Virus record (IMG/VR): IMGVR_UViG_3300021400_001516
Reading direction: 5' to 3' (one strand)
Length of the DNA: 20,000 nucleotides
Source: an uncultured virus (IMG/VR IMGVR_UViG_3300021400_001516)
Lineage: Duplodnaviria > Heunggongvirae > Uroviricota > Caudoviricetes
The translations under genes and the position numbers were made by a program. How positions within the stretch are numbered: position 1 is the stretch's first letter; each line of letters begins with the position of its first letter. The notes under the pieces were generated by a model, which had not been told where the DNA came from, did not search any database, and saw only the letters and a program-made list of their open reading frames with translations. Shown in pieces: positions 2,679 to 20,000 of this stretch.

Positions 2679-4694
2679 ATGAATGAAGAAGTAATTAGAT
2701 ACTTACCGTTTCCCGACAACGTAAGGAAAAGACCCTCTATGTATTTAGGAGGACTAGAAAATGCATCAGTCCCCTTACGAGAGATTTGTGATAATAGTTG
2801 TGATATTATTGCGGAATCTGGAATAGGGGATACGATTTTGGTAAGTAACGACTTTAATGGTTTTTTATTTGTTGCAGATAATTCTTTGGGAATACCAATC
2901 TCAATGAGTATTGATAAACCAGAGATGACTCAAGCTGCTCTTAGTATTCTATCTCTTCATTCCGGTTCAAAGTTTGAGGCAGGCGATACGACAAGAGTAG
3001 GACTTAATGGTGTAGGTTCTGCTGCGGTATCGGCTTGTAGTGAAGTATATTGCCTCTTATCTAAAATCCATGAAGGGAACTACACAGGTTCAACAAAAGA
3101 AGTTTATGATTGTTGGATGAATGCAGGTCCAAGAGATAGGAAAAATCTCTATTACATTGTAGTCTGTGAGAAAGGTATCAAGACTTATGAAGGGGCAGGA
3201 AAATTAAAAGACTTAGAGAAAATGATCTTTAGAGGAATTAAGAATTATATTGAAATTCCAAAAGGGATGAGTACAATAGTCTTGTTTAAACCTGATCCTG
3301 AAATTTTTGAATCAACGCAGGCAGAAATTCCAGAAAAAAATCTTCAGTATTACTTATTAATACAGGAAAAGTTTTATGGAAGAAAAGTAAATGTGGTAGT
3401 AGATGGGGGAAAACTTGGAAATTCTATGACACCTTATAAGTTCGAGGTACTTAGAACTATTATTCCAAAAGATACTTCAATGAATAAACAGGTTGGAGTA
3501 TATTTGACCTTTGAGGTAGATCCTTCACTTGGACCTAAGGTTGAAACGGGATCAGTGAATGGACTCGATACTAATAGAGGACAACATATAACTATTGCAG
3601 AGAGTGTTCTTAAGACAGCATTAAAAGATTATTATAAAATTAAACATGACTGTCTTTTGAATGGAATGCAATTTAGGATGGTTGTTTTAGCAAATGAATG
3701 TCAGTTTAATAGTCAGACGAAAGAAAATCTTAAGGCTATTTCAAAAGTAAAATTGACAGACTTTGCTCCTTTAGTGAAGGATATTGAAAAAATTTTTAAG
3801 AAGAATCCGGAGTATTGGGACTTAGTAGTAGAAAAGCTTAATCAATTAGCTGACTCTATGAAGTCTATTGGGGCTATGGATAAAGCTGCAAGAATGATGG
3901 ATTCTCTTAGTGGAGTTGCACAGTATAGAGCAAAAGCCGATTATCCAAAAACTTTTGCTGATGCGACTGGAAAGAATAGAGTCGACTGTGAATTATTTTT
4001 AGTTGAGGGTAATTCAGCACAAGGATCTCTGGTGATGGGAAGACCTGATACTAAAACTCATGCTATTTTAGGTTTGAGGGGTAAGATCTTAAATGTAACC
4101 GATAAAGGTGTAGATCGAGCACTTGAATCTAAAGTTATTGGGGATATATTTAATATTATAGGTCTTGGTCTTGATATTAATTGGGTTGGAAGTAATGCAT
4201 CTTCTTTTGATGAGGAGCATGAAATAATAATGAAGAAAACAAGATACGGAAAAGTAATTATTGCGACAGATGCAGATCCTGATGGATCTCAGATCTGTAA
4301 TGAAATTATGTATCTATTTTCGAAATTTGCACGATTCCTAATTGATCATGGAATGGTGTATAGAGCACTATCTCCGTTATTTAGAGGAATTAGTAAGACG
4401 ACTGGAAAAGTAACTTATTATTATCCTGACGACCCGATTGATCCTTCCACACAGTTTCCGATAGATCTTGATACAAAGAAGCACTACGATAGGTGGAAAG
4501 GACTTGCATCGCTATCGCCAGAAACAGGAGAAGTTTACGATGCATTCTTTAATCCAGCAACAAGGAGATTAGTACAGATAACTCCTGATGGCTTGGATTA
4601 TGGAAGACAGCTTAATGAAGATATTAACGAGAGAAAGAAATTATTGTTTAATCAGGGAATTCTTAGTAATCCCTATAACTTTACAGATCTCTAA
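2679..4694 (+). CDS. gyrB: Type IIA DNA topoisomerase ATPase/TOPRIM subunit (GyrB/ParE-like)
   Basis: GHKL motifs VRKRPSMYLG, LREICDNSCD, ADNSLGIP, LHSGSKF, GLNGVG; TOPRIM motifs LFLVEGNSA, LRGKILNV, IATDADPDG; RWKGL. Confidence 0.95.
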   Translation: MNEEVIRYLPFPDNVRKRPSMYLGGLENASVPLREICDNSCDIIAESGIGDTILVSNDFNGFLFVADNSLGIPISMSIDKPEMTQAALSILSLHSGSKFEAGDTTRVGLNGVGSAAVSACSEVYCLLSKIHEGNYTGSTKEVYDCWMNAGPRDRKNLYYIVVCEKGIKTYEGAGKLKDLEKMIFRGIKNYIEIPKGMSTIVLFKPDPEIFESTQAEIPEKNLQYYLLIQEKFYGRKVNVVVDGGKLGNSMTPYKFEVLRTIIPKDTSMNKQVGVYLTFEVDPSLGPKVETGSVNGLDTNRGQHITIAESVLKTALKDYYKIKHDCLLNGMQFRMVVLANECQFNSQTKENLKAISKVKLTDFAPLVKDIEKIFKKNPEYWDLVVEKLNQLADSMKSIGAMDKAARMMDSLSGVAQYRAKADYPKTFADATGKNRVDCELFLVEGNSAQGSLVMGRPDTKTHAILGLRGKILNVTDKGVDRALESKVIGDIFNIIGLGLDINWVGSNASSFDEEHEIIMKKTRYGKVIIATDADPDGSQICNEIMYLFSKFARFLIDHGMVYRALSPLFRGISKTTGKVTYYYPDDPIDPSTQFPIDLDTKKHYDRWKGLASLSPETGEVYDAFFNPATRRLVQITPDGLDYGRQLNEDINERKKLLFNQGILSNPYNFTDL

Positions 4695-6031
4695 TGGGAA
4701 GAAAAAAGAAAGTAGAGGAGAACTTACCCGAATTTAGACAGATAGAAGTTCTTCCGATAGGACAAGCAACAGAAGAAGCAATTCTTGATGCAGCTGGGTA
4801 TATTGATAATCATAGAGTACTTGCAAGTGTTTATGATGGATGTAAACCGTCGTATCGAAGATTAATTTGGTCTGGACTTCAATTTCCGAAAGGTAAGATG
4901 CAGCCCAGTGTTCAGATAGTAAGCACTGTATCCAACTACCATCCACATTCGACGGACTCAATGAAATTCTTATTGGGTTCTATGGTTAAAAGTGGAATCT
5001 TCAGTGGAGCAGGCGCTTTCGGTATGACTTCTATTCTTGGAGATACAAAAGAACCGGGTGCATTGAGATATACTAAGTCTTGTTTATCAGACTTATATTA
5101 TGATGCCCTAATGCCGCTTCTTCAGTGTGTCCCTAGAGTAGAATCTCCTGTAGGACCTGAAGAAATTCCTTACATACCTTTGCCTTTCCCCCTGGCATTA
5201 AGTTTTAAAGGACTTGTCAGCGGAATTGGCCTTGGGATTAGTACGGTGTATCCAAACTTTTCACCAAAGTCACTGTATCTGGCTTATGTGAACGATGACC
5301 CAAATCTCTTGGAACCTAATGTAAATTTGATTCTGGATAAACAAAATTCAGAACTTAAAAAACTTTGGGAGACGGGGAAAGGAAGAGTTATTTATTCATA
5401 TAAACTATCAAAACATACAGCAGAGGATGGAAAACAGGGATATCTGTTTGAAGGAGATACTGAAATCTTTACTCCATCCTTGAGGAGAATTAATAAATAT
5501 GTAGAGTCCGGTCATGTATTTATTGAAGACTTAACTGATATTCATGGACCTAAAATGTTTGTAGGTCTTGTTAATGGTAGGGGATTTAGTCTTCAAGATT
5601 TAGAGACTTTATGTAGACAGTGTTGTTATGATTCAACTGTTTACACTCTTAATGTGACGGATGGAAAGACGGCTTTTAGGATTCCTCTCAAAGATTGGTT
5701 AGATTTTACTTATAAAAATTACATTGATCTCCTACAACAAGTCAATGTAAGGAAGATAGATAAAGTGAAATTTGATATATCGGTTCAAGAAGCTTTACCT
5801 ATTATAGCAGATTATATACTCAATAAAAATCCAAAAGCGACAGACAAAGAGATCTGTAATGTCTTTGGAATGCCTGAAGAAATTGTTGAGGCCGTCATGA
5901 GTAAACCTATCAGTCAACTTAGAAAAAATAAAGATAATTCAGCAAGGATTAAAGCTTTGAAAGATAAACTAAAGGAATTGAAAAAATTTAATCCTGTAAC
6001 TTATGTAGAAGAACTTGTAGGAAAATTATGA
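4694..6031 (+). CDS. gyrA: Type IIA DNA topoisomerase breakage-reunion subunit (GyrA/ParC-like, no C-terminal pinwheel)
   Basis: DGCKPSYRR, YHPHS and catalytic ALRYT; TAATG overlap with the B subunit; only 445 aa. Confidence 0.92.
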   Translation: MGRKKKVEENLPEFRQIEVLPIGQATEEAILDAAGYIDNHRVLASVYDGCKPSYRRLIWSGLQFPKGKMQPSVQIVSTVSNYHPHSTDSMKFLLGSMVKSGIFSGAGAFGMTSILGDTKEPGALRYTKSCLSDLYYDALMPLLQCVPRVESPVGPEEIPYIPLPFPLALSFKGLVSGIGLGISTVYPNFSPKSLYLAYVNDDPNLLEPNVNLILDKQNSELKKLWETGKGRVIYSYKLSKHTAEDGKQGYLFEGDTEIFTPSLRRINKYVESGHVFIEDLTDIHGPKMFVGLVNGRGFSLQDLETLCRQCCYDSTVYTLNVTDGKTAFRIPLKDWLDFTYKNYIDLLQQVNVRKIDKVKFDISVQEALPIIADYILNKNPKATDKEICNVFGMPEEIVEAVMSKPISQLRKNKDNSARIKALKDKLKELKKFNPVTYVEELVGKL

Positions 6032-6914: not shown

Positions 6915-7037
6915 TCTTATAAATACAAAAACAACTTTCTGGTGTGTGAAAGTTCTATATATATTTACACAATTTTATAAATTTTAAATAATTTTATTTT
7001 AATTTAATTTCAATTTTATTAATTTTTAGATTTTATT
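6915..7037 (+). promoter_or_regulatory. Promoter motif (TCTTATAAATA), H-type pseudoknot and U-rich leader: candidate translational operator
   Basis: Stem 1 AACTTTC 6933-6939 / GAAAGTT 6948-6954; loop TGTGT 6943-6947 pairs with ACACA 6967-6971; then about 65 nt almost purely A/T up to the ATG. Confidence 0.6.
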
Positions 7038-8321
7038 ATGTATACAGTTGATTCATTTTTAGAAAAACTTAGTTCAATTTCTCCCAGTACAAAGAAAAGA
7101 AATTTTGAGAGTAAGAAACTAATTCAAAGAGTTTACTGTAATTTCAAGGGAAATTTTGGAAAATATCAGATCCTTCCCTTCCCTAGTGCAATTACTAACT
7201 ATCCCTTTGTAGTTCTTGAGAATACAAGAGAGATCAATATTCCAAGAAAAAATATTGCAGCTGATGGTACAGTTTCGCAGTACAATGCTTGGATTAAGAT
7301 ACTTCCTGTATCTGCTTATCAGGTAAAAGATCCTTCAAGTGGTCGTGTGACTAATAGTCTTACGGCAGAGGAGGAAGCTCAGCTTAAACAAGTTTATGCT
7401 GTTTGGGAAGAGCTTTACAAAGAGGTAGATGGTAAGAATAACACGATCGATCCGGTAATCAGTAAGTTGATTCGTAGAAAGAATTATACGATTTTCCATG
7501 GATATTGTGTTAATATGTTCGAAGAAGGGGATCCTAGAAAAGCTGCTAGGCAGAATTTCAGCGCACTTTTCATTATGACCGCGAAGAATTTTGTTGACAT
7601 TGTAAGTAACAATATTGTTGACAATAACATTATGAACGGTAATAACCCCGGTTGGCTGAATGACATCTATAGTTCAGACCTTACCGGAAGAAAGGGTTTC
7701 ATGATGATGTCAGTATCTCAGAATGTAGGAGGTCCTGGTTTCAATATCTCGGTAAATCATGTTTTAAATGATACTTTCCTTCAGGGCGTAACGATTCCTG
7801 AGGAGGAAGCAGCTGAGATGCAGAACCCAGTGGAGACTTTTCTGGGATGGCAGGCACGTACAGAAGATGCTGATGTTCCTACAGAGGAAAGAAGACTGTA
7901 TAATGCTAAGATCATGCAGGAGGCAATCGATTATATGACTGATCTTCTTGCTCGAATTAGAATGGGTAAGCAGAATAACACTAGTATCCAGGAGGCTATT
8001 AGTGCTACTACTAAGTTGTTGATGGAAAATCAACAGCCCACCGATACGAGAGGAAATCAGTTTAATGATCCTGTCTTAGCAGACTTGGCTGAGAAACAGC
8101 AGCCGGCAGCAGGTTATGGATTTGCTAATGTACCTAATAATCCCGAACAAGTTCAAGAGAAGAACTTTAGTTCGGATCCCTTTAGCAATCCCGCAGTAAG
8201 CCATCAAGATCCTATTACGGGATCTCCGGTAGCGGCAGAGCCTACAAGAGAGGTACCTTTCAATAGGCCTTCATTTGCAGGTGGTACTGATTCTGGATTT
8301 CCATTTTCCAGTAATAAGTAA
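7038..8321 (+). CDS. Probable single-stranded DNA-binding protein (gp32-like)
   Basis: N-terminal GKYQILPFP resembles the gp32-type strand motif; long low-complexity P/Q/N/acidic tail ending DSGFPFSSNK; own promoter motif and terminator; replication context. The function is inferred. Confidence 0.55.
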   Translation: MYTVDSFLEKLSSISPSTKKRNFESKKLIQRVYCNFKGNFGKYQILPFPSAITNYPFVVLENTREINIPRKNIAADGTVSQYNAWIKILPVSAYQVKDPSSGRVTNSLTAEEEAQLKQVYAVWEELYKEVDGKNNTIDPVISKLIRRKNYTIFHGYCVNMFEEGDPRKAARQNFSALFIMTAKNFVDIVSNNIVDNNIMNGNNPGWLNDIYSSDLTGRKGFMMMSVSQNVGGPGFNISVNHVLNDTFLQGVTIPEEEAAEMQNPVETFLGWQARTEDADVPTEERRLYNAKIMQEAIDYMTDLLARIRMGKQNNTSIQEAISATTKLLMENQQPTDTRGNQFNDPVLADLAEKQQPAAGYGFANVPNNPEQVQEKNFSSDPFSNPAVSHQDPITGSPVAAEPTREVPFNRPSFAGGTDSGFPFSSNK

Positions 8322-9686: not shown

Positions 9687-10208
9687 ATGGCTAATATAAT
9701 TGATAAAATTTTTAAGCCAAGATATACAATTTCTGAGTTATTATCCATAGATCAGGGGAGACAGGCAAGAGCTGCAAATTGTAGAGTGACTTTGATAAAT
9801 ACTTTCTATTCCATTAAGGAGGAAACTCTGATGGATAAAGTTAGGTCTTTTTTAAATAAATCTCCAAGAAGACAAGTATTTTATATAACTTTTAAATTTC
9901 AAGTAAAATCAGATACTGGAAATGTACATAACGTATATATCCAGGTTGATCCAGACTTTGATCTTAATAAAGGAGGATCAAATCATGTAAGAATATATTG
10001 TGGTTGTGCAGATTTTAAATATAGATCTGCATATGCCCTTGGACAAAGAAATTCTTTATTTTTAAACGGTAGGACTCTAAGTGATCTAGGTGATTCTTGG
10101 AAAACTGCAGGAACTGGAAAAGCGGGACAATCTTTACTCTGTAAACATGCTTTTGCTTCGCTTAACTGGTTAATGAGTCACTACTCTAACATAATGAGAA
10201 ATATATGA
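9687..10208 (+). CDS. SWIM-type zinc-finger protein
   Basis: YCGCADFKYR ... LCKHAF (CxC...CxH) preceded by predicted beta strands. Confidence 0.75.
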   Translation: MANIIDKIFKPRYTISELLSIDQGRQARAANCRVTLINTFYSIKEETLMDKVRSFLNKSPRRQVFYITFKFQVKSDTGNVHNVYIQVDPDFDLNKGGSNHVRIYCGCADFKYRSAYALGQRNSLFLNGRTLSDLGDSWKTAGTGKAGQSLLCKHAFASLNWLMSHYSNIMRNI

Positions 10209-12952
10209 GTAAAATTCTGGCTATATCAGATATTCACATTCACGATTATCCACAGAGAAACCCAAGCGAAAAATATAGATTATATCAAACTAAATTAGTA
10301 ACTCAAAATATTTTAGAAGTAGCTCAACGAGAGGGGACTGAGATTCTTGTAATTGCAGGAGATGTTATGGATAAGTGGAACCCCCGTCCGTATGTGCAGG
10401 CGGAGATTAAACTTTTCCTTGATACTCTCATGTCTTATTTTAAAGAAGGTTACATTATTTGGGGAAATCATGATCAAGATAATAAAACTGAAAATTCTGA
10501 TTTCATAGATTCATGTTTGGCTGTAATGCTTCCTCCTAATTTATATTATGCTGATATGAAGGAGATTAATATAGATGGGTGTAGGATTGGATTTATGAAT
10601 TGGAGACCTAAGTTTGACTTATCGTGGATTCAAGGAAAACTTGATATTCTCTTCACTCATGCTACCATATGTTACAGTGATACAGATCAATTTACGAGTC
10701 AGAAATTAGATGAAAGTAAGTTTGATCTTGCTATATGTGGTGATATTCATAGACCTGCATCGAAGGGGAAGTATGTTAGTATTGGAATTCCACAAAGATG
10801 TAAGATGGGTGACGGAGAAGATAGCACCGGTATTATTCTAGATACTTCTACTAAGACTTGGCAGTGGGTAGATTTAAACCCTAACAAGAATCTTATGAAG
10901 TTTCAGTATACAAATAAACGTGATCAAGAAGGATGGGATCCAAATACAGGAACTTGGAATGTATATAAGCCAGATAATTTAAGTATTTCTGGAGGTATTA
11001 GAGATATTAAGATACCTGCATGGGAAGAAATTAATAAACTGACGGATCAAATAATTTCCTTAAATGGTCTCGAAGCTATTCATAGTGAGGTTCTCAAGAA
11101 TATCCAAAATCGTGAATCTCTGGAGGTTGATTTTGATTTTGTTTTAACTCATTTTCACTGTAAAAATTGGAGAAGTATTGATGATTGTGATCTTTACTTT
11201 GACGATCTTGATAGAATTCTTATTACGGGGGAAAATGGTTCTGGAAAAAGTAGTCTCTTAAGTGCTATACGATATGCTTTTATAGAAAATAGGAGTGTTA
11301 AAGATTTCTTACAATTTGGTACAAAGGAATGTGAGGCTACAGTTGAGTTCGTTTATCAAGGCAATCAGTATAAAATTGAACGTGGATATAAAGGACGTGG
11401 AGGTTATACTAAACTTTGGATGAACGGGGAAGAACAAAAAGCCAATTCTAAAACTGATCTTGACGAGGATATTCATACCAGATTTCCTTTCATAGATTAT
11501 ATGGATGTTTATTTCTTCGACTCAGATCATCATAAACTTATTGGTGGAATAACTCCTGAAAGAAAGTCTGAGATCGTTTCCAAGTTCTATAAGATGGATA
11601 AAATTGACTTGTATAATGAAGCAGCTCAATTATTATTCTCAAAAGAAAAAGAGGAGATAGATCGAACCAGGGGAAATATCGAAACGGGGAAAGAATTACT
11701 GAAATATATAGAAGGTAATCTTGCTAATCTTCACGTTCCTTCGCTAAGTGAGGCAGATCTCCAAAAGAAAAAACAAGAAGGTATCGTACTTCAAAGTAAG
11801 TGGAGAACTTGGAATACTTACATGACCCAAACAGCTAATTATCAAGCTAGTATAAAACTCTATAGAGAAAAAGTTACTGATCTTGAAAAACAAATTAGCG
11901 GATTTAGAGATGCAGCTCTTCTTCAATCGGAAATTCAAAGTTATCGTGATAAAATAACTTGGATACAGGGAGAAGTTCAAAAGCTTCAGGCTATAGAAAC
12001 TGAAGGTAGACAAAAAAGAGCCGAATTTGATAATATTAAAAGTTCTGGTATCTGTAGAGCATGCGGTAGACCTCTTGATAATCAGGAAGAAAGAAATGCA
12101 AGGCTTCAAGAATTAGATAAAGAACTACAAGATCTTACTATCAGGTGGACTACTCAGAATGACTATATTAAGTCTCATATAGGCAATCCTTCTAAAGTCA
12201 TAGAGGAATGTAATACTGCTATGGCAAGGGTTATGTCTGAGAAGAGTATTCAGGATAGAACTAGAAATGAACTCTCTCAAGCTAGAGTTAATGTAACTAG
12301 GGAAGAGAATAATCTTAAAAACTTAGGTCCAGCTCCCGAGAAGGTAGAACTTCCTCAGGGATTTATGGATGAGATGAGTAAGATAGAAACTTCTTTAGCA
12401 GAGTGGGCTCAGTATAATAAACTTCAGAGCGATAAGGCCTATAATGAAGGTCAGGTTCAGAAATGTGAAAATTACCTGAGAACCTTGCAATCTCAGTCTC
12501 AAAATCTCCAAGATTATATTAGACTTACCGGCCCTACGGGTAAAATTTATGAAGAAATTATGTCTCGTCTCGCCAGTCAGTTTAGTGATAATCAGGTAAT
12601 CTATAAAGTTGAAAGATCTACTTTTAGAAAGAAGGAACACTTAGATCTCTCATCTTACTACTTGAATAACGGTAATGAAGTTTCTTACCAGGCTTGTAGT
12701 AGTGGACAGAAAACTATTCTTGATATAAATTTCCTTAGTAAAATTGTAACAAGGATGGGACTCCTAGTAATGGACGAATTCTTAAAACACCTCGATGCTA
12801 AGAATCATGATATCTGTATTGACATGTTGAAGGAGATGAATATTGGTTGTATTCTTCTCAGTAGTCATATGGAGTCTGTTCCTGCTTTTAATAATAAATC
12901 TATAACTCTTGAACTTAATGAGAGTGGTGTATCTAAAATTCAAATGAAATGA
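10205..12952 (+). CDS. Fused Mre11/SbcD nuclease - Rad50/SbcC ATPase (gp47-gp46-like)
   Basis: Phosphoesterase motifs SDIH, AGD, GNHD, TH, GDIH; Walker A GENGSGKS (11228-11251); coiled coil with CRAC hook (12053-12064); signature CSSGQK; Walker B/D-loop LVMDEFLKHLD; H-loop SSH. Confidence 0.92.
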   Translation: MSKILAISDIHIHDYPQRNPSEKYRLYQTKLVTQNILEVAQREGTEILVIAGDVMDKWNPRPYVQAEIKLFLDTLMSYFKEGYIIWGNHDQDNKTENSDFIDSCLAVMLPPNLYYADMKEINIDGCRIGFMNWRPKFDLSWIQGKLDILFTHATICYSDTDQFTSQKLDESKFDLAICGDIHRPASKGKYVSIGIPQRCKMGDGEDSTGIILDTSTKTWQWVDLNPNKNLMKFQYTNKRDQEGWDPNTGTWNVYKPDNLSISGGIRDIKIPAWEEINKLTDQIISLNGLEAIHSEVLKNIQNRESLEVDFDFVLTHFHCKNWRSIDDCDLYFDDLDRILITGENGSGKSSLLSAIRYAFIENRSVKDFLQFGTKECEATVEFVYQGNQYKIERGYKGRGGYTKLWMNGEEQKANSKTDLDEDIHTRFPFIDYMDVYFFDSDHHKLIGGITPERKSEIVSKFYKMDKIDLYNEAAQLLFSKEKEEIDRTRGNIETGKELLKYIEGNLANLHVPSLSEADLQKKKQEGIVLQSKWRTWNTYMTQTANYQASIKLYREKVTDLEKQISGFRDAALLQSEIQSYRDKITWIQGEVQKLQAIETEGRQKRAEFDNIKSSGICRACGRPLDNQEERNARLQELDKELQDLTIRWTTQNDYIKSHIGNPSKVIEECNTAMARVMSEKSIQDRTRNELSQARVNVTREENNLKNLGPAPEKVELPQGFMDEMSKIETSLAEWAQYNKLQSDKAYNEGQVQKCENYLRTLQSQSQNLQDYIRLTGPTGKIYEEIMSRLASQFSDNQVIYKVERSTFRKKEHLDLSSYYLNNGNEVSYQACSSGQKTILDINFLSKIVTRMGLLVMDEFLKHLDAKNHDICIDMLKEMNIGCILLSSHMESVPAFNNKSITLELNESGVSKIQMK

Positions 12953-14807: not shown

Positions 14808-16322
14808 ATGTTAAATATAAATTTCAGCAAAGATAAAAATTTGTTAATTTTAGAGACAGATGACCCAAGTGCGGTCTGTTTCTTAGAAGCAAATCAAAAA
14901 AAGTATGAATATATTCCTTATCAAAAAAAATGGGGATATACTGAGAAGACTCTAAAAATTTATGAACCTAAGAGAGGAAGAAAGCCGAAAACTAATTCTA
15001 ATATTGAGACTTATGAAATAGGGCCAGGCTGGGTTGGATATCTCTTAGGGGTATTTAGAGGAAAACTAAGCTCTGAAAATTATAATCAAATTCTTAAAAA
15101 TGTAGTTTATTCAGATCTTAGTAGAGAAGTACCTTTTCCAGAACTTCGAGATTATCAAAATTCTGATGTATTGTTTCTTTTGAAATATAGAAGAGGTCTT
15201 ATGACTGTAAATACAGGCTATGGAAAAACTCAAACCATAGCTACTCTTACAAACTACGCACATGAAGAACTTAAGAAAAAGGTTCTTCTCGTATGTCCAT
15301 CTAATAAGGCAAGAGACGAACTTGTTAAGAGATGTAAAAGTGTTTTTAATCTCGATGTAAGTTACCGGGATAAAGACCTAAATGGACACCTCGACTGTAT
15401 TATCACTGCTGGCCTTATGAATTCTAAAAAAACTGAAGAAGATTGGTTCTCAGATCTTCTCAAGGAATATCAATGGGTACTTGTAGATGAGGTAGAATAT
15501 ACTATAAATCCCGGAGGTAATTTTATTTACAAGCATACAACGGGGGCAGAGAGGTTCTATGCTTTCTCCGGTACTGCTGATAAAGAGAATGGTGATATGA
15601 TTTCTTTTAATCAAGGACTGTCAGATGTAGTTCTTAGAAATAAAGATCTTATAAAATATTTTGGACCATCTCTTATCTATAGAAAACCTCTTAATATTCA
15701 AGTATCTTATACCTCTATTAAAACACGAGCTCTAGACAACTTAAAAATAGATATTCCGGAGATTCAGGAAGAGGGGGGAAATGTATATCTTGAAATCATG
15801 GCAAGAATATGGACTGATCCCGGAGTAGTAGCGGTTTTAATGGAGACTCTGAGACACTTCCCCCGTGCATTTCTTCCCATGAATAATCTTGTTAGTATTA
15901 TTAATATATGGATCGAACAATATTTTAAGGGAAACTTTAGAATTCTCCTGGTATGTGGTGAAGGATATCTTTATTATGATCTTGAAGGAAATAAAACAAA
16001 ACTTTCTCTTCAAGAAGCATGTGATTATATCTCTCAGGGGCTTGTTGATGTAATACCTTCTACTAGTGCTGGATATCGTGCACTAGACTTTCCTGGACTT
16101 GAAAATATAGTTTTAATACAGGGAAAAATAGGAGGAGTAGTTCTTCAATCTATTGGAAGAGTTGCAAGGGGAAGTCATATGAGAATTGTATGTTTTGAAC
16201 CTTTCTCTAAAAGATCAATCCCTATCTACTCTAAAGGAGCCGATGAAAGAAAGAAAATGATACAGGATTATTATCAGTACTGCGATATTCAATTCGAAAC
16301 CTTATTAGAAGATGAGCTATAA
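14808..16322 (+). CDS. Superfamily 2 helicase (UvsW-like)
   Basis: Q motif LRDYQ, Walker A NTGYGKT, Ia VCPS, Walker B LVDEVE, motif III SGT, motif VI QSIGRVARG. Confidence 0.88.
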   Translation: MLNINFSKDKNLLILETDDPSAVCFLEANQKKYEYIPYQKKWGYTEKTLKIYEPKRGRKPKTNSNIETYEIGPGWVGYLLGVFRGKLSSENYNQILKNVVYSDLSREVPFPELRDYQNSDVLFLLKYRRGLMTVNTGYGKTQTIATLTNYAHEELKKKVLLVCPSNKARDELVKRCKSVFNLDVSYRDKDLNGHLDCIITAGLMNSKKTEEDWFSDLLKEYQWVLVDEVEYTINPGGNFIYKHTTGAERFYAFSGTADKENGDMISFNQGLSDVVLRNKDLIKYFGPSLIYRKPLNIQVSYTSIKTRALDNLKIDIPEIQEEGGNVYLEIMARIWTDPGVVAVLMETLRHFPRAFLPMNNLVSIINIWIEQYFKGNFRILLVCGEGYLYYDLEGNKTKLSLQEACDYISQGLVDVIPSTSAGYRALDFPGLENIVLIQGKIGGVVLQSIGRVARGSHMRIVCFEPFSKRSIPIYSKGADERKKMIQDYYQYCDIQFETLLEDEL

Positions 16323-17727
16323 TATGAATTCAGGAATTAACAATGTAGATTTATTACTGGGATGTTTCTCGCCTTATGTATTTTCACAGGCAAAAGAAGC
16401 TATTTACGATTTAAAGTACTATTTTGATACTAATCCTGCAACTTCAGGAAATCCTATAATATCAGAATTAGTAAAGGCTATCAGAGACTATGATCTGGAT
16501 GCAATTGGAATACCGCTATTTAATAGTATTTTTGCTAGGTGCCAATTATCTCCGGCAGAGGGACAGCAAATTCTAAATCGAGTAGTAGAATATAAAAAAT
16601 ACTCGAAAGAACAAATGCTGCCCGTAAAAAAGTATGTTTCTGATGTTGTTGCTAGTGTCTGGTTATCAAAGGCGGAGAGGTATCAAAATAGTCCTTCAGA
16701 TTATATAAATTACATTAAAGGAATAAATCTGAAAAGCTCAGATAGGGAAGGGCTGAGTTCAATAAATTTTAATGATCTTGATATAAATTCAATCTTAAAA
16801 CAGGAAAGTGATAATATAGTTCAAAGTAAGTTTGATTTTATAAATAGGTCTTTTCCCAACGGTGGATATCCGAGAAGTTCAATTATTATTGTAAGTGCTC
16901 CTCCGGGTGTAGGTAAATCATTGCTCTTGACGGAAGAAACTTTATGGATGGCTCTTCATGGAACTAAGGTTTTGTATGGTATCTTTGGTGATATCGGAAT
17001 GAGGGACATGTTGATAAGAATGTGTGCCATCTATAGTGGGTTTTCTTTTAATGAGACTAATCGAAGACTTCCAGAGCTATATAAAAGTCTTAGGGATGCA
17101 TTAAGAGGGAACTTTGAAATATCCGTTAATCCAGCAGGACAAGTTAGTGTTGAAGAATTTGTAGAATTTTCAAAGAATTCTCCTGCGAAAGTTATTGTAG
17201 CAGACTATGATAGTAACCTGACGATGGAAGCTAAATCGGACTCTATGTACGATCTTTTTGGAACTATGTATCAGAAGTTTACTGAACTTACTGCTGAACC
17301 TTATAACAAACTTCTTTTTGTGGCAAGTCAACCTAAAATTGTCGCTTGGGGAAATTCAGTGATAGGTTTGACGGACATTGGTGAAAGTTCTAGAAAACAA
17401 CATGCGGCTGATATGATCATTACAAAGGGCAAAGAGGTTAATAGTCCAAACCATCTTAGTGTAATAAATATTCCAAAAAATCGTCGCGGTGAAGTTGATC
17501 TTCAGGCATACTCAATACGTCTTAGTAATGGTAGAACTAAGATTGTACCTAGGGCTGTTTATCAAAATCTTCTTCAGATTCCTGAAAAAAGAGAGTATCT
17601 TGACAGTGAAATTGATATGATGATAGATGGATGGAGAAAATCTCAAGGAAATATAAATGCTGCTGTAGAAAATCGTATGAATCAGCAACAACAAAGACAG
17701 GGACCTTTTCCCTTTCCGATGAGCTAA
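16312..17727 (+). CDS. dnaB: Replicative DnaB-like (SF4) helicase
   Basis: Walker A APPGVGKS, VADY, ASQ, GESSRKQHAAD, arginine-finger KNRRG. Confidence 0.85.
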   Translation: MSYNMNSGINNVDLLLGCFSPYVFSQAKEAIYDLKYYFDTNPATSGNPIISELVKAIRDYDLDAIGIPLFNSIFARCQLSPAEGQQILNRVVEYKKYSKEQMLPVKKYVSDVVASVWLSKAERYQNSPSDYINYIKGINLKSSDREGLSSINFNDLDINSILKQESDNIVQSKFDFINRSFPNGGYPRSSIIIVSAPPGVGKSLLLTEETLWMALHGTKVLYGIFGDIGMRDMLIRMCAIYSGFSFNETNRRLPELYKSLRDALRGNFEISVNPAGQVSVEEFVEFSKNSPAKVIVADYDSNLTMEAKSDSMYDLFGTMYQKFTELTAEPYNKLLFVASQPKIVAWGNSVIGLTDIGESSRKQHAADMIITKGKEVNSPNHLSVINIPKNRRGEVDLQAYSIRLSNGRTKIVPRAVYQNLLQIPEKREYLDSEIDMMIDGWRKSQGNINAAVENRMNQQQQRQGPFPFPMS

Positions 17728-17758
17728 AAATACCCCCGTTTTAGGGGTATTTTTTTTT
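17726..17758 (+). terminator. Rho-independent terminator
   Basis: AAAAATACCCC-loop-GGGGTATTTTTTTTT immediately after the helicase stop. Confidence 0.9.
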
Positions 17759-17790
17759 CCGTCTGAAAAGGCCTAAAAAGCCTTATATAT

Positions 17791-17972
17791 AGAGAGAGTT
17801 AGGAGAAGTTCTTAACGAATACTGAAAATACCGGAAAACCCATATAATTATAAATCCGGCAGAAAGTAGTTAGGAATAATATCTATCTCAACGAACACTG
17901 AAAATACTAGAAAACCTACATGATTATAAGAGCTAGTAGAAAGTAGTTGAGATGGAAATCTCTCTTTTTTTT
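17791..17972 (+). ncRNA. Structured ncRNA 1 containing two tandem copies of one module
   Basis: CCTTATA at 17781; terminal AGAGAGA/TCTCTCT stem plus T-tract; two modules 76 nt apart with compensatory changes. Confidence 0.75.
17809..17956 (+). repeat. Two-copy imperfect direct repeat (17809-17876 and 17882-17956)
   Basis: Consensus AACGAAYACTGAAAATACYRGAAAACC...ATTATAA...CYRGYAGAAAGTAGTT. Confidence 0.9.
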
Positions 17973-17995
17973 GTTCCCCTCAAAACCTTATATAT

Positions 17996-18153
17996 GAAAT
18001 TAAAAAAAAATATGTTGCCCGTCGCGGGATTCTTTCATCCCGCACCCCCGAGAGGAACTTCAATCCCACATTCATAGGCGACCTGATATCGGTCGTGGAC
18101 GACGCTCCGCTACTTTCCCGCCCGGGATCTCGAAGTTCCTCTCATTTTTTTTT
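17996..18153 (+). ncRNA. Structured GC-rich ncRNA 2
   Basis: CCTTATA at 17986; hairpin GCGGGAT/ATCCCGC; 12-bp stem 18050-18061/18132-18143; internal hairpins; T9. Confidence 0.7.
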
Positions 18154-18171
18154 CGCCTTATTTTCTTATAT

Positions 18172-18290
18172 ACAAGATTGATTGAGTTGGTCTCTGAACA
18201 AGGTCTTATAAACCTAACGTGACTTGTAAAAGTATTCTCCCCGTTGTAGTGTGGGTGAAGAAGACATCTTGATCAATCATTATTTTTTTT
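18172..18290 (+). ncRNA. Structured ncRNA 3
   Basis: TCTTATA at 18164; 11-bp terminal stem 18176-18186/18268-18278 with G-U pairs; two internal hairpins; T8. Confidence 0.65.
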
Positions 18291-18310
18291 GTCCCCTAAA
18301 AACCTTATAT

Positions 18311-18378
18311 ATGACTGAAATTTATATTATTGTGATGGAACAGCGAATGACTAAGATAAAAATTCGCTGTTCTTTTTT
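18311..18378 (+). ncRNA. Candidate short sRNA 4
   Basis: CCTTATA at 18303; unpaired 5' segment, then perfect 11-bp hairpin 18338-18348/18362-18372 plus T6. Confidence 0.55.
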
Positions 18379-18437
18379 ATTCTTTTCAAATCCCCCTGTT
18401 TTCTTATATTGGATATAAATTTTAAAGTTTAAAGATT

Positions 18438-19088
18438 ATGGCAGAAATTACAATTACGCAAGCTTTGAGTACTCTTAAGGTATTAGAGAAAAGACTTAAG
18501 GCAAAGTTAGGAGTTTCCGATAACGGTAGACGTACTTCAAGTGCTAACTTAAAGTTGGTAGCTGTATCACGTGGTTCACACCTGAGGGATCCTTATACTT
18601 CCTACAAAGAAGAGGATTTCATTGCTACGGCTAAATCTTCTATGCAGTCAATTGAAGATCTTGATGAAAGAATTATTACCATTAAAAATGCTATTGCTGC
18701 TAGCAATGCGGTAACGATGGTCAAGATTGCAGGGAAGGAGATGACTGTACAAGAAGCTATTATCAGGAAACAATACTCTGAGCTCAGAAAGCAAAAAATC
18801 GAAGCTTATAAGGCCGAACTAAAGCGTGCGAGGGAGGAGTTCCAGGAGGTGATTGATGAAAATCGATCATACGCAGAACGTCTTGCCAACGGAGAGAGCT
18901 CAGACTCTAAGAAGTTTAAGGATGCTGAAGAATTTGTCAGCAATACCTATGCTGCTTCTTTAATCGATCCCTGTGATCTACAGAACAAGATTGAGAAGAT
19001 GGAGCAGGACTTCGAAGATTTCGTTGCCAATATTGACTTTGTACTTAGTGAGTCCAATGCGACTACTAAGATTATTATACCCGATTAA
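18438..19088 (+). CDS. Coiled-coil protein resembling the DIP1984-like family
   Basis: ITITQALSTLKVLEKRL, AIAASNAVTMVKIAGKEMTVQEAI, LIDP, IDFVLSESNATTKI, with internal duplication of the SNAxT and TxxxA motifs. The family assignment is from recall and needs an HMM check. Confidence 0.7.
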   Translation: MAEITITQALSTLKVLEKRLKAKLGVSDNGRRTSSANLKLVAVSRGSHLRDPYTSYKEEDFIATAKSSMQSIEDLDERIITIKNAIAASNAVTMVKIAGKEMTVQEAIIRKQYSELRKQKIEAYKAELKRAREEFQEVIDENRSYAERLANGESSDSKKFKDAEEFVSNTYAASLIDPCDLQNKIEKMEQDFEDFVANIDFVLSESNATTKIIIPD

Positions 19089-19108
19089 AAAAAATAGTTC
19101 TTAACCGG

Positions 19109-19378
19109 AAACACTCAGAAATAACGCCATCTTTTATCTTGGATGTTAAATTAAGATAATCATTAATAGTACAGCATGTTAATGAAGAACTTATAAGTGT
19201 AAAAGTTCTTAGTATCTTAAAGCTCAAGGATAAAAGATGAAAGTTGAAAGCTCAAAGTTTAAGTTATTAAAGCTTAGAGTTTAAGACTTAAAGCTGATAA
19301 AATCCTCGGTTTATGTTTATCATATTCTTGGAGATATGTAGAGGTTTTGCAGTTGTATCCTCGAGTGTTTGTACGAGG
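19109..19378 (+). ncRNA. Structured RNA with heptamer-repeat core downstream of the coiled-coil gene
   Basis: AAACACTC 19109-19116 pairs with GAGTGTTT 19363-19370; several internal stems; repeat tract 19217-19294. Confidence 0.65.
19217..19294 (+). repeat. Degenerate ~7-nt tandem repeat, consensus TNAAAGN, 11 units
   Basis: Unit-final G at 19222, 19229, 19236, 19243, 19250, 19257, 19263, 19272, 19279, 19285, 19293. Confidence 0.85.
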
Positions 19379-19396
19379 CAGGTGTAGGAAAGATTT

Positions 19397-19431
19397 CAGT
19401 GTCGTCATTAGTTTGGCGACACTGTTTTTTT
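19397..19431 (+). terminator. Rho-independent terminator
   Basis: CAGTGTCGTCA / TGGCGACACTG followed by T7. Confidence 0.9.
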
Positions 19432-19463
19432 CCTTTTCCTTCCTTCTCTTTCCTTATAAGAGT

Positions 19464-19838
19464 ATGTATATAGCGATTGATTTTGACGGAACGTGTGTAA
19501 CACATGAATTTCCTAAAGTAGGAAAAGAAATAGGTGCTGTGCCTGTATTAAAGAAACTTATAGAAAGAGGTCATAAGCTTATTCTTCACACAATGAGAGG
19601 GAAAGATACTATTGATGATGCCAAAAATTGGTTTGATGAAAATAATATTCCTCTTTTTGGGATTAACTATAATCCAACGCAGTGGAGATGGACGAATTCT
19701 AAAAAAGTTTTTGCTCAACTCTACATAGATGATGCAGCTCTAGGGGTACCACTTAAATTAGATACTTCTCTTTCTAACAGACCTTTTGTAGATTGGGAAG
19801 AAGTTGAAAAATTATTAATCGACAGATATATTTTATGA
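19464..19838 (+). CDS. HAD-superfamily hydrolase, small capless type (start corrected to ATG 19464)
   Basis: Motif I IAIDFDGT, motif II LHTMR, KKVFAQLYIDD; the upstream extension in the ORF track crosses a terminator. Confidence 0.88.
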   Translation: MYIAIDFDGTCVTHEFPKVGKEIGAVPVLKKLIERGHKLILHTMRGKDTIDDAKNWFDENNIPLFGINYNPTQWRWTNSKKVFAQLYIDDAALGVPLKLDTSLSNRPFVDWEEVEKLLIDRYIL

Positions 19839-20000
19839 TAGACAAGAAACAGTTTAAAGATTTGTATGGATTTAATTCAGGATCTATTAAATGGGTCCCT
19901 AAAGGTGGAGAACTTCTTGAGTGTATTGGACAGAGAATAATTCGGGTCCATTTCAAGAAAGAGGGAGAGGACGGAGATTATTCTTCCACAGAAACTCAAG
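19835..20000 (+). CDS. Partial hypothetical protein (MIDKKQFKDLYG..., runs off window)
   Basis: ATGA overlap with the HAD gene; open to the window end. Confidence 0.65.
   Translation, partial: MIDKKQFKDLYGFNSGSIKWVPKGGELLECIGQRIIRVHFKKEGEDGDYSSTETQ

Follow-up and report, generated by a model that had tools for sequence, protein, structure and literature searches.

Here we describe a large structured RNA and its companion protein gene in a stretch of 20,000 nucleotides (nt) from an uncultured virus of the Caudoviricetes (IMG/VR record IMGVR_UViG_3300021400_001516); this whole stretch is called the window below. The RNA, of about 293 nt (about 19098-19390, + strand), starts 10 nt past the stop codon of a gene for a 216-amino acid (aa) protein of the phrog_1491 family, and it carries an array of 7-nt units, UNAAAGN, which we term heptads. 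We regard as established the RNA family, how it folds and its link to the protein. Beyond this, we lean towards the reading that gene and RNA form a large, undescribed phage ribonucleoprotein module, with the protein binding to the heptads and regulating its own synthesis. We infer the role of the protein as heptad reader because gene and RNA are obligately adjacent and because heptads also occur in the leader of the gene. An earlier note, made from the letters of the window, had proposed a coiled-coil protein that oligomerizes on a co-transcribed repeat RNA, one subunit per repeat.

An alignment-based scan of IMG/VR found 291 relatives, of which the best 80 loci were kept (loci bear numbers with L, among them some from other searches); a related-locus search with the window protein alone had found none. 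The architecture was derived from 47 non-identical loci, after the removal of 13 near-duplicates, mostly T5-like. Across the family the RNA is about 260-450 nt long and lies directly 3' of the gene on a shared transcript. Its closing stem, P1, has about 10-20 pairs; in most cases the 5' strand has CG as its last bases, followed by a GAAA(A)C junction, and the 3' strand begins one base past the helix P5 in 29 of 39 loci. The bases that follow the junction pair with a segment a few bases 5' of the P5 3' strand, forming the pseudoknot helix PK2. A second pseudoknot, PK1, consists of a C-rich/G-rich stem A and a stem B of 5-8 pairs, joined by GGUUAA; its interleaving was read by eye, in other sequences, in L004, L010, L013, L015, L025, L027, L037 and L052. 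PK1 is followed by a variable region of unrelated hairpins, the heptad array, a near-invariant AUAAAAUC and finally P5, which has the form C-NNNN...NNNN-G followed by C(U/A)G (consensus AAAUCC-NNNG...CNNNGG-C(U/A)G). In the clade of the window (L004-L009) there is an added helix, AAAAUCC/GGAGUUUU, and the PK2 strand lies in a different place. The core ties both ends of the RNA together and holds out a mostly unpaired UNAAAGN tract.

Covariation was examined in a MAFFT alignment of the whole RNA from 37 loci, from which ten with atypical junctions or very long insertions were omitted (L014, L018, L023, L026, L028, L039, L045, L054, L056 and L057). Of the cells of the named structure 86% are paired, against 56% in shuffles; changes on both sides were found in 326 cells, against 109; and the covariation score is 0.777, against 0.198, with none of 500 shuffles reaching the observed value. 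When the partner is slid by 1-3 columns, 34-44% of cells are paired. P1 has 15 pairs, with 92% of cells paired and changes on both sides in 14 of them, and P5 is 100% paired with double changes in three of five pairs; both helices were first found through a complementarity search, so that these percentages lean towards the structure, a bias that the between-locus and sliding controls and the anchors CGAAAAC and GGCUG limit but do not remove. The median P1 stem score is 13 within a locus and 7 between loci. PK2 is 65% paired, and its best ungapped stem shows a modest excess (median 5.75 versus 4.5 between loci; a score of at least 5 in 29 of 42 versus 37.5%). G.U accounts for 106 of the 596 P1 pairs (18%, the conserved terminal G.U included), which fixes the strand and favours RNA.

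A covariance model of the 3' domain (AUAAAAUC-C NNNG ... CNNNGG-C(U/A)G helix, then the closing-stem strand) was built from 46 other loci with the window excluded, and it matched 19290-19406 on the + strand at full length (40.5 bits, E 3e-5; next match 23.7 bits). All features of the RNA family are present in the window: P1, the junction, PK2, the 5' pseudoknot, the 3' domain and a phrog_1491 gene directly 5' on the same strand. In Rfam 15, positions 17700-20000 gave 11 rows at E <= 10, all far under their gathering scores, and the rows overlapping the RNA were only GcvB (13.3 bits, E 7.8) and mir-3192 (17.3 bits, E 6.4), likewise below gathering. On L001-L003, Rfam 15 gave nothing at E <= 1 on the heptad RNA, and tRNAs and one drum RNA elsewhere. 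This drum RNA (RF02958, L003:4407-4514, Clostridium phage D-1873; 47.7 bits, gathering score 43) lies about 450 nt 3' of the heptad RNA and shares one long unannotated gap with it.

The stretch 19095-19393 of the window folds to -79.9 kcal/mol on the + strand (z -5.05, reached by none of 200 shuffles) and to -50 on the opposite strand (z -1.87). P1 has 9 pairs and one bulge here, weaker than the family median. The earlier note had taken 19109-19116 and 19363-19370 as the paired ends of the RNA. These letters (AAACACTC with GAGTGTTT) are indeed complementary, but comparison identifies them as the internal pseudoknot helix PK2, with the closing stem P1 outside. All the other stems it named are present at the places it gave; TTATCTT/AAGATAA is one arm of the conserved PK1 pseudoknot, and AGCTG-AAAATCCTC/GAGGTTTT-CAGTT is a helix peculiar to the window's clade. 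The coordinates are collected in Table 1.

Some relatives have foreign sequence within the RNA. In L025 (1900-1974) and L068 (1913-1987) there are tRNA genes between the 5' pseudoknot and the array, for tRNA-Ser in one and, in the other, a tRNA-like gene whose anticodon loop is odd; processing of the tRNA would leave two pieces joined by P1 and PK2 only. In L242 and L250 the RNA copies are broken by long insertions, with about 200 nt of unrelated, structured-looking sequence before the 3' domain in L242 and an apparent open reading frame (ORF) after the 5' domain in L250. The RNA may have served as the target of a mobile element or intron in these two loci.

The gene and the RNA are linked across very different phages. 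With tblastn the protein was found in 741 phage records, with coverage of 80% or more in 715, including T5-like, rV5-like, Pseudomonas, Vibrio, Bacillus, Erwinia, Lactococcus, Aeromonas and Clostridium phages; at the nucleotide level, a blastn search of phages with 18300-19500 gave no match. The RNA lies directly 3' of homologs in T5-like, rV5-like, Lactococcus, Clostridium, Vibrio and metagenomic phages. In T5-like SP15, Klebsiella phage KB57 and Clostridium phage D-1873, a gap of 400-1230 nt that lacks annotation follows the homolog; it contains heptads, and the RNA end sequences differ yet stay complementary. Together with Lactococcus phage AM2, in which the RNA is present and the array degenerate, this makes four of four downstream stretches read in annotated phage records that have heptads and a covarying closing stem. 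The T5 gene is T5.085, with the RNA in 43141-43505, a stretch left without annotation. The P5 motif was found downstream on the + strand in 75 of the 79 IMG/VR loci with at least 400 nt downstream, whereas in the control regions it turned up in 4 of the upstream flanks, on 4 of the opposite strands and within 2 of the genes; one of the four misses, L020, has GGCGU in place of GGCUG, and on reading the RNA is there. A search in the other direction, with the pattern ATAAAATCCTTG-N35-60-CAAGGCTG and no protein information, gave 36 loci, 24 of which have a family ORF 209-413 nt upstream on the same strand; of the remaining 12, 11 are array-free matches within coding sequence, and the last is a genuine 3' domain carrying a large insertion. 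On bacterial genome contigs, five of seven loci plainly have the RNA, and the other two have long insertions. The single conserved module proposed in the earlier note is thus borne out: homologs in very different phages keep the repeats and the structure, and both the downstream AAAG periodicity and the covarying closing stems were found.

This linkage bears on the possibility that the RNA acts by itself, as a large structured RNA like the multimer-forming ornate phage RNAs, with the heptads as a linker or RNA-RNA contact and the linkage reflecting shared transcription. The complex knotted core and its strong covariation agree with such a role, as do the position beside tRNAs, which is also that of GOLLD and ROOL, and the tolerance of the array for inserted hairpins and even tRNA genes. 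Against it stand the near-obligate tie to one protein family in both search directions and the recurrence of heptads outside the RNA, in the leader of the protein, and we consider a self-acting RNA distinctly unlikely.

The stretch is found in gut and rumen metagenomes, and parts of it in six metatranscriptome runs; contigs were compared for four rumen RNA runs from four studies (X15, X16, X17 and X19). In X16, a single 992-nt contig, about 91% identical, covers 18395-19389 at a depth of 79 versus about 6.5 on the next gene. It begins within the promoter-like site at 18383-18410, which also contains the TCTTATA (18402-18408) that the earlier note had named as the start of the unit. In X15, X17 and X19 the RNA part forms its own contig, distinct from those of the coding sequence, with depths of 17 versus 3.6 in X15, 214 versus 2.7 in X17 and 188 versus 6-18 in X19; contig depth is a poor expression measure, in which relatives may collapse into one contig, and these are RNA runs only. 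The contrast within a run is hard to explain by DNA carry-over. The contigs end at 19381-19392, that is, at the end of P1 and before the terminator. The region thus appears to be transcribed, as had been claimed, and as one unit: the X16 contig spans gene and RNA, and a terminator scan between the two gave a single weak 5-pair site (18938-18954), within the coding sequence. The roughly 300 nt 3' of the ORF contain no credible further ORF. The excess of the RNA part over the coding part agrees with a stable RNA that is released by trimming from the 3' portion of the mRNA. Genes for tRNA occur within 1.2 kb in 21 of 46 loci, all on the same strand, several of which start 1-3 nt past P1, and flanking tRNA processing in many relatives would cut the RNA free and set its ends. 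On its letters, the hairpin and T run at 18331-18375 is likely the terminator of the preceding unit, and the module would therefore be its own transcription unit; the hairpin is absent from the list of the terminator scan because its loop is longer than the scan permits.

Co-transcription, with no terminator between gene and RNA, would also be seen if the RNA were a cis-acting 3' untranslated element that merely stabilizes or regulates the upstream mRNA. We judge this very improbable. The RNA exceeds the coding sequence in depth about 5-fold in X15, 10- to 30-fold in X19 and about 80-fold in X17 (the X16 contig covers both), the tRNA genes inside or against the RNA in relatives would sever it from the mRNA, and about 300 nt with two pseudoknots far exceeds what a stabilizer needs.

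The window array contains eight exact AAAG (19202, 19219, 19233, 19240, 19247, 19254, 19269 and 19290). The 11 degenerate 7-nt units claimed earlier can be laid out as T-N-A-A-R-type units, seven of them in one phase (19217-19265), rather than the six reported, and four shifted by one (19267-19294). When 19195-19300 was dinucleotide-shuffled 2000 times, no shuffle had as many AAAG pairs at 7, 14 or 21 nt as the real tract, and 0.15% reached eight AAAG. Across the family the unit is N-U-N-A-A-A-G: the 319 spacings between successive AAAG peak at 7 (75), 14 (49), 21 (13) and 28 nt (8), versus a flat distribution in a coding control, and of 75 adjacent pairs, 59 have U as the middle spacer base. 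A conservative parse gives a median of 8 units per RNA (interquartile range 6.5-10, range 2-30), often as a block of about 6, an insertion and 2-4 more. Eleven is thus not a family constant, and the earlier idea, modelled on the 11 of TRAP, that each repeat takes one subunit does not extend to the family; the likeness to TRAP is accordingly a loose one. Short, perfect AAAGNTN tandem arrays, such as AAAGTTC x 4-10, are frequent in the intergenic regions of numerous unrelated viral contigs (L085-L164); the heptad alone is therefore not a signature of the RNA.

Repeats that adjoin a gene in a replication module, as here, could also be a DNA-level element (origin iterons, a packaging or recombination site) or belong to a type III toxin-antitoxin pair. 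A DNA element is at odds with the 18% G.U in P1, the strand-specific folding and the high RNA-library depth, and a 7-bp period fails to put sites on one face of the duplex. As for a type III system (ToxIN/AbiQ/CptIN), the protein has no match in PADLOC (E <= 0.1) or Pfam, and the repeats are 7 nt long and downstream of the gene, versus about 34-36 nt (about 36 nt in ToxI) and upstream. The antitoxin analogy of the earlier note thus fails in every defining feature tested, namely toxin family, repeat length and repeat position, and we regard a DNA element or a type III pair as extremely improbable.

Heptads are also present in the leader of the gene. In the window leader, Tandem Repeats Finder reports a period of 7 with 3.3 copies, and double units start at 18422 and 18423. 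Leaders were counted in 44 loci with start codons set by program, three of 47 being dropped for want of the N-terminal motif. Double units within 60 nt 5' of the start codon were observed in 20 of these, versus 3.2 +/- 1.7 in dinucleotide shuffles (maximum 9 in 500 shuffles), 2 at -200 to -141 and none inside the gene. Leader units take after the variant found locally in the array; in T5 and KB57, for instance, they are AAAC-type. Triple units hardly occur outside the module: the only one in the 121,750 bp of T5 lies within the RNA, the only one on the 122-kb L004 contig belongs to the array, and in the L010 record they are found both in the array and in the leader of the gene, with scattered others at about the level of a reversed-pattern control. 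Double units are not enriched across the window (22 versus 16 +/- 4 expected), which gives no sign of a wider regulon in these 20 kb. The occurrence of heptads outside the RNA points to one factor that recognizes them in both places, and by their position those at 18416-18437 are a candidate operator for autoregulation. Control of a protein's own synthesis through a copy of its main site is known for ribosomal proteins, CsrA and TRAP and is a classic mark of RNA-binding proteins.

The 216-aa protein matches phrog_1491 at E 4e-41, and no family was matched in Pfam or NCBIfam scans. An AlphaFold2 model (mean predicted local distance difference test score 87.8) suggests a bundle of long helices with a small sheet cap from the N-terminal strand, the C-terminal strand and two hairpins. 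Two alike, conserved motifs, S89-N90-A91-x-T93 and S204-E205-S206-N207-x-x-T210 (SNATT motifs), include residues of the conserved set that gathers where helices and sheet meet in the model. The closest structure is PDB 3kdq from C. diphtheriae, of unknown function (Foldseek probability 0.91, E 0.03). VIA gave 3kdq a Z of 9.5 over all 152 residues, below the safe level of the tool for helical bundles, with the runner-up at 7.3; PDB sequence searches with the protein and its profile did not return 3kdq and gave weak coiled-coil-type matches only. As for the DIP1984-like relationship raised in the earlier note, 3kdq is a candidate fold match and DUF6847 (PF20935) is weakly matched by 5 of 35 family members (best E 0.001), whereas the window protein itself has no DUF6847 match. 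ESM Atlas returned hypothetical viral clusters only, plus weak leads to DUF6847 and DUF7873. A pore-former reading was not built on, given Foldseek probabilities of at most 0.21 for XaxA and AhlC (ClyA-type) and matches to Bacillus_HBL in 3 of 35 members at E 0.05.

The family is large: clustering at 50% identity leaves 3,679 representatives, nearly all of 200-217 aa, and 1,659 have E <= 1e-30. One member, P0153 (409 aa), contains the domain twice in tandem, and the other listed members are single-domain proteins of about 195-217 aa. PHROGs labels the family 'tail fiber protein', a name also found in RefSeq. A tail fibre would be expected in a structural module and to have a fibrous trimeric architecture; neither the genomic position nor the compact-bundle fold of the model agrees with the name. 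The gene lies among replication genes in the window, in the early region of T5 (T5.085) and in tRNA clusters or beside gyrase in KB57 and AM2. The protein is routinely mislabelled as a tail fibre, and the 210-aa member P0006 bears another misleading label, 'DNA repair exonuclease SbcCD nuclease subunit', in one source.

Several observations weigh against the protein as heptad reader, in addition to the lean of the paired percentages and the weakness of contig depth given above. Family members are mildly acidic (median pI 5.9, net charge -2), and profile scans of the window protein and 35 members found no known RNA-binding domain. The variable unit number (2-30) argues against a fixed ring, and in some loci (L209, AM2) the arrays are strongly degenerate. 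A search for the heptad pattern alone gave at least 123 stretches, and among 80 fetched the family was present in 6 and missing in 74. Leader heptads were not detected in 24 of the 44 loci by the double-unit test, and AM2, in which the gene closely follows a small ORF, has none.

The main rival is an RNA that serves as sponge or decoy for some host factor, such as a single-strand RNA-binding protein, a ribonuclease or a defence sensor, with the protein only helping to fold, process or protect it, or acting separately. It would suit an RNA that accumulates far above its mRNA and an acidic protein that lacks an RNA-binding domain, as well as the location of the module among tRNA genes and RNA-processing or repair genes, typical of counter-defence islands; RNA-processing or repair genes account for 7 of 45 neighbouring ORFs (CCA/poly(A) polymerase, PIN, PhoH, HD, RNA ligase, NYN and exoribonuclease). 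However, the hosts range from Proteobacteria to Firmicutes and rumen bacteria, so that a shared host target must be universal, and the strict adjacency, common strand and leader heptads are simpler to explain with the protein as reader. We consider a sponge unlikely.

Several known systems resemble the module in part. CsrA/RsmA with CsrB/RsmZ likewise involve a noncoding RNA with many short purine-rich motifs and the same motif beside ribosome-binding sites, a placement that would here allow titration as well as autoregulation. The Csr motif is GGA in hairpin loops and its sponge is encoded elsewhere, whereas here the motif is UNAAAGN with a 7-nt period on the protein's own transcript; and CsrA is a small beta-strand dimer, whereas the window protein is an unrelated helical bundle. 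TRAP on the trp leader and HutP on hut mRNA are oligomers that read NAG triplets with short spacers; HutP sites, UAG plus 4 nt, have a 7-nt period, and TRAP also binds ribosome-binding sites. Both, however, are small ligand-activated rings with fixed site numbers (11; 2 x 3) on mRNA leaders, unlike the 2-30 units on a stable structured RNA found here. Identity with TRAP, an all-beta protein of about 75 aa that forms an 11-mer ring on 11 (G/U)AG, was rejected in view of a 216-aa helical bundle and variable units, and the TRAP and HutP families gave no Pfam match, TRAP none at E <= 1 in any of the 35 members. GOLLD, ROOL and the stable RNAs of the T4 tRNA cluster are also phage-borne, hundreds of nt long, pseudoknotted, near tRNAs and of unknown function; to our knowledge, they have no dedicated neighbouring protein family and no heptad array. 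ToxIN and CptIN share a repetitive RNA beside a protein gene on one transcript and a part in phage-bacterium conflict; their repeats are pseudoknots of about 36 nt upstream of the endoribonuclease toxin that cuts them, whereas here 7-nt units lie downstream of the gene inside one large fold. DIP1984-like proteins (3kdq; DUF6847), of unknown function, are the best fold match; the phage proteins are about 60 residues longer and have no sequence match to 3kdq, and the one bacterial DUF6847 gene inspected (n=1) has no heptad RNA downstream.

If the neighbouring protein is the heptad reader, several copies would load onto the array, possibly via the conserved SNATT patch, and free protein would also bind 2-4 heptads in its own 5' leader, beside the ribosome-binding site. 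Such leader binding would keep protein synthesis in step with the amount of RNA. That large lytic phages carry the module in tRNA and RNA-repair islands hints at a part in taking over RNA or translation, or in counter-defence. A more specific version, which we put forward tentatively, is a new class of phage ribonucleoprotein in which the knotted core closes a heptad loop that serves as a loading rack or ruler for the co-transcribed protein copies, with feedback through the leader, and in which the particle acts on host RNA or translation, or against tRNA-directed defences. In a bolder variant, drawn from the motif only, the rack might hold or shield tRNA-Lys, because AAA and AAG are lysine codons and the heptad U-N-x-x-x-R-N has the layout of an anticodon-loop partner. 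Among tRNAs, tRNA-Lys is the one known to be attacked most often by bacterial defences.

According to profile scans of its proteins, the window is the replication region of a large phage (Table 1). A single 915-aa ORF (10205-12952) joins a calcineurin-like phosphoesterase (SbcD/gp47-like) to an SbcC/gp46-like ATPase; as a rule, two genes encode them. A very A+T-rich stretch at 6956-7063, with overlapping tandem repeats of 5-17 nt, lies just 5' of and runs into the ORF at 7038-8321, and it could be a promoter cluster or an origin-like region. The gene past the terminator (19467-19838) encodes a small HAD-type phosphatase (NCBIfam BT0820 family, E 3.5e-21), for which the PHROGs name 'phosphoheptose isomerase' is probably wrong.

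Table 1. Features of the window and of the heptad RNA module, in order of position.
Feature	Position	Strand	Remarks
Topoisomerase II subunits	2679-6031		
Fused SbcD-SbcC nuclease	10205-12952		
Thioredoxin			replication region
Two helicases	14808-17727		
Upstream hairpin ACAGCGAAT...ATTCGCTGT, then T run	18331-18375	+	read from letters
Promoter-like TTTTCA, 16 nt, TATATT	18383-18410	+	9/12 consensus matches; consensus only
Leader heptads, two to three UNAAAGN	18416-18437	+	last unit 3 nt 5' of ATG
ORF, 216 aa, phrog_1491 family	18438-19088	+	ORF list, profile match
P1 closing stem, 5' strand TTCTTAACC	19098-19106	+	in minimum-energy fold; P1 covaries across 37 loci
PK2, 5' strand AAACACTC	19109-19116	+	right after GG/GAAA junction; pairs with 19363-19370, 8 pairs
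PK1, H-type pseudoknot	19128-19159	+	read from letters
PK1 stem A, CATCT with GGATG	19128-19132 with 19141-19145	+	
PK1 stem B, TTATCTT with AAGATAA	19134-19140 with 19153-19159	+	
Two local hairpins in variable region	19161-19210	+	in letters and fold
Hairpin CATTAA/TTAATG	19161-19166/19179-19184	+	
Hairpin AAGAACTT/AAGTTCTT	19185-19192/19203-19210	+	
Heptad array	19198-19296	+	8 exact AAAG, about 11-13 UNAAAGN units
Family-wide AUAAAAU, then P5 5' strand CCTCG (19304-19308)	19297-19308	+	
PK2, 3' strand GAGTGTTT	19363-19370	+	register, covariation in relatives
P5 3' strand CGAGG (19374-19378), then C, A	19374-19380	+	window form of near-invariant GGC(U/A)G
P1 closing stem, 3' strand GGT-g-TAGGAA	19381-19390	+	pairs with 19098-19106
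Intrinsic terminator	19397-19431	+	hairpin 19397-19424, 11 pairs, 6 G-C, then T run

A human-microbiome study has reportedly put forward thousands of candidate RNAs. Literature searches found no description of the RNA reported here, whose motif the supplements of this study (PMC8040213) could hold unnamed, and a search for T5.085 found no paper. DIP1984, DUF6847 and 3KDQ are not mentioned among the matches listed for 'septicolysin'. In the portions available to us, PMC11464382, on small RNAs in T5 and PARIS, makes no mention of the heptad RNA, and 10.64898/2026.09.22.753630 describes a different, reverse-transcriptase-linked phage RNA array.

In conclusion, we report here a structured phage RNA that is new to Rfam and a large protein family beside it that is also present in the model phage T5. 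If the protein reads the heptads, the two would constitute a widespread, overlooked RNA-protein machine of large lytic phages with a built-in feedback loop, located in the tRNA and RNA-repair islands that are important to the conflict between phage and host.

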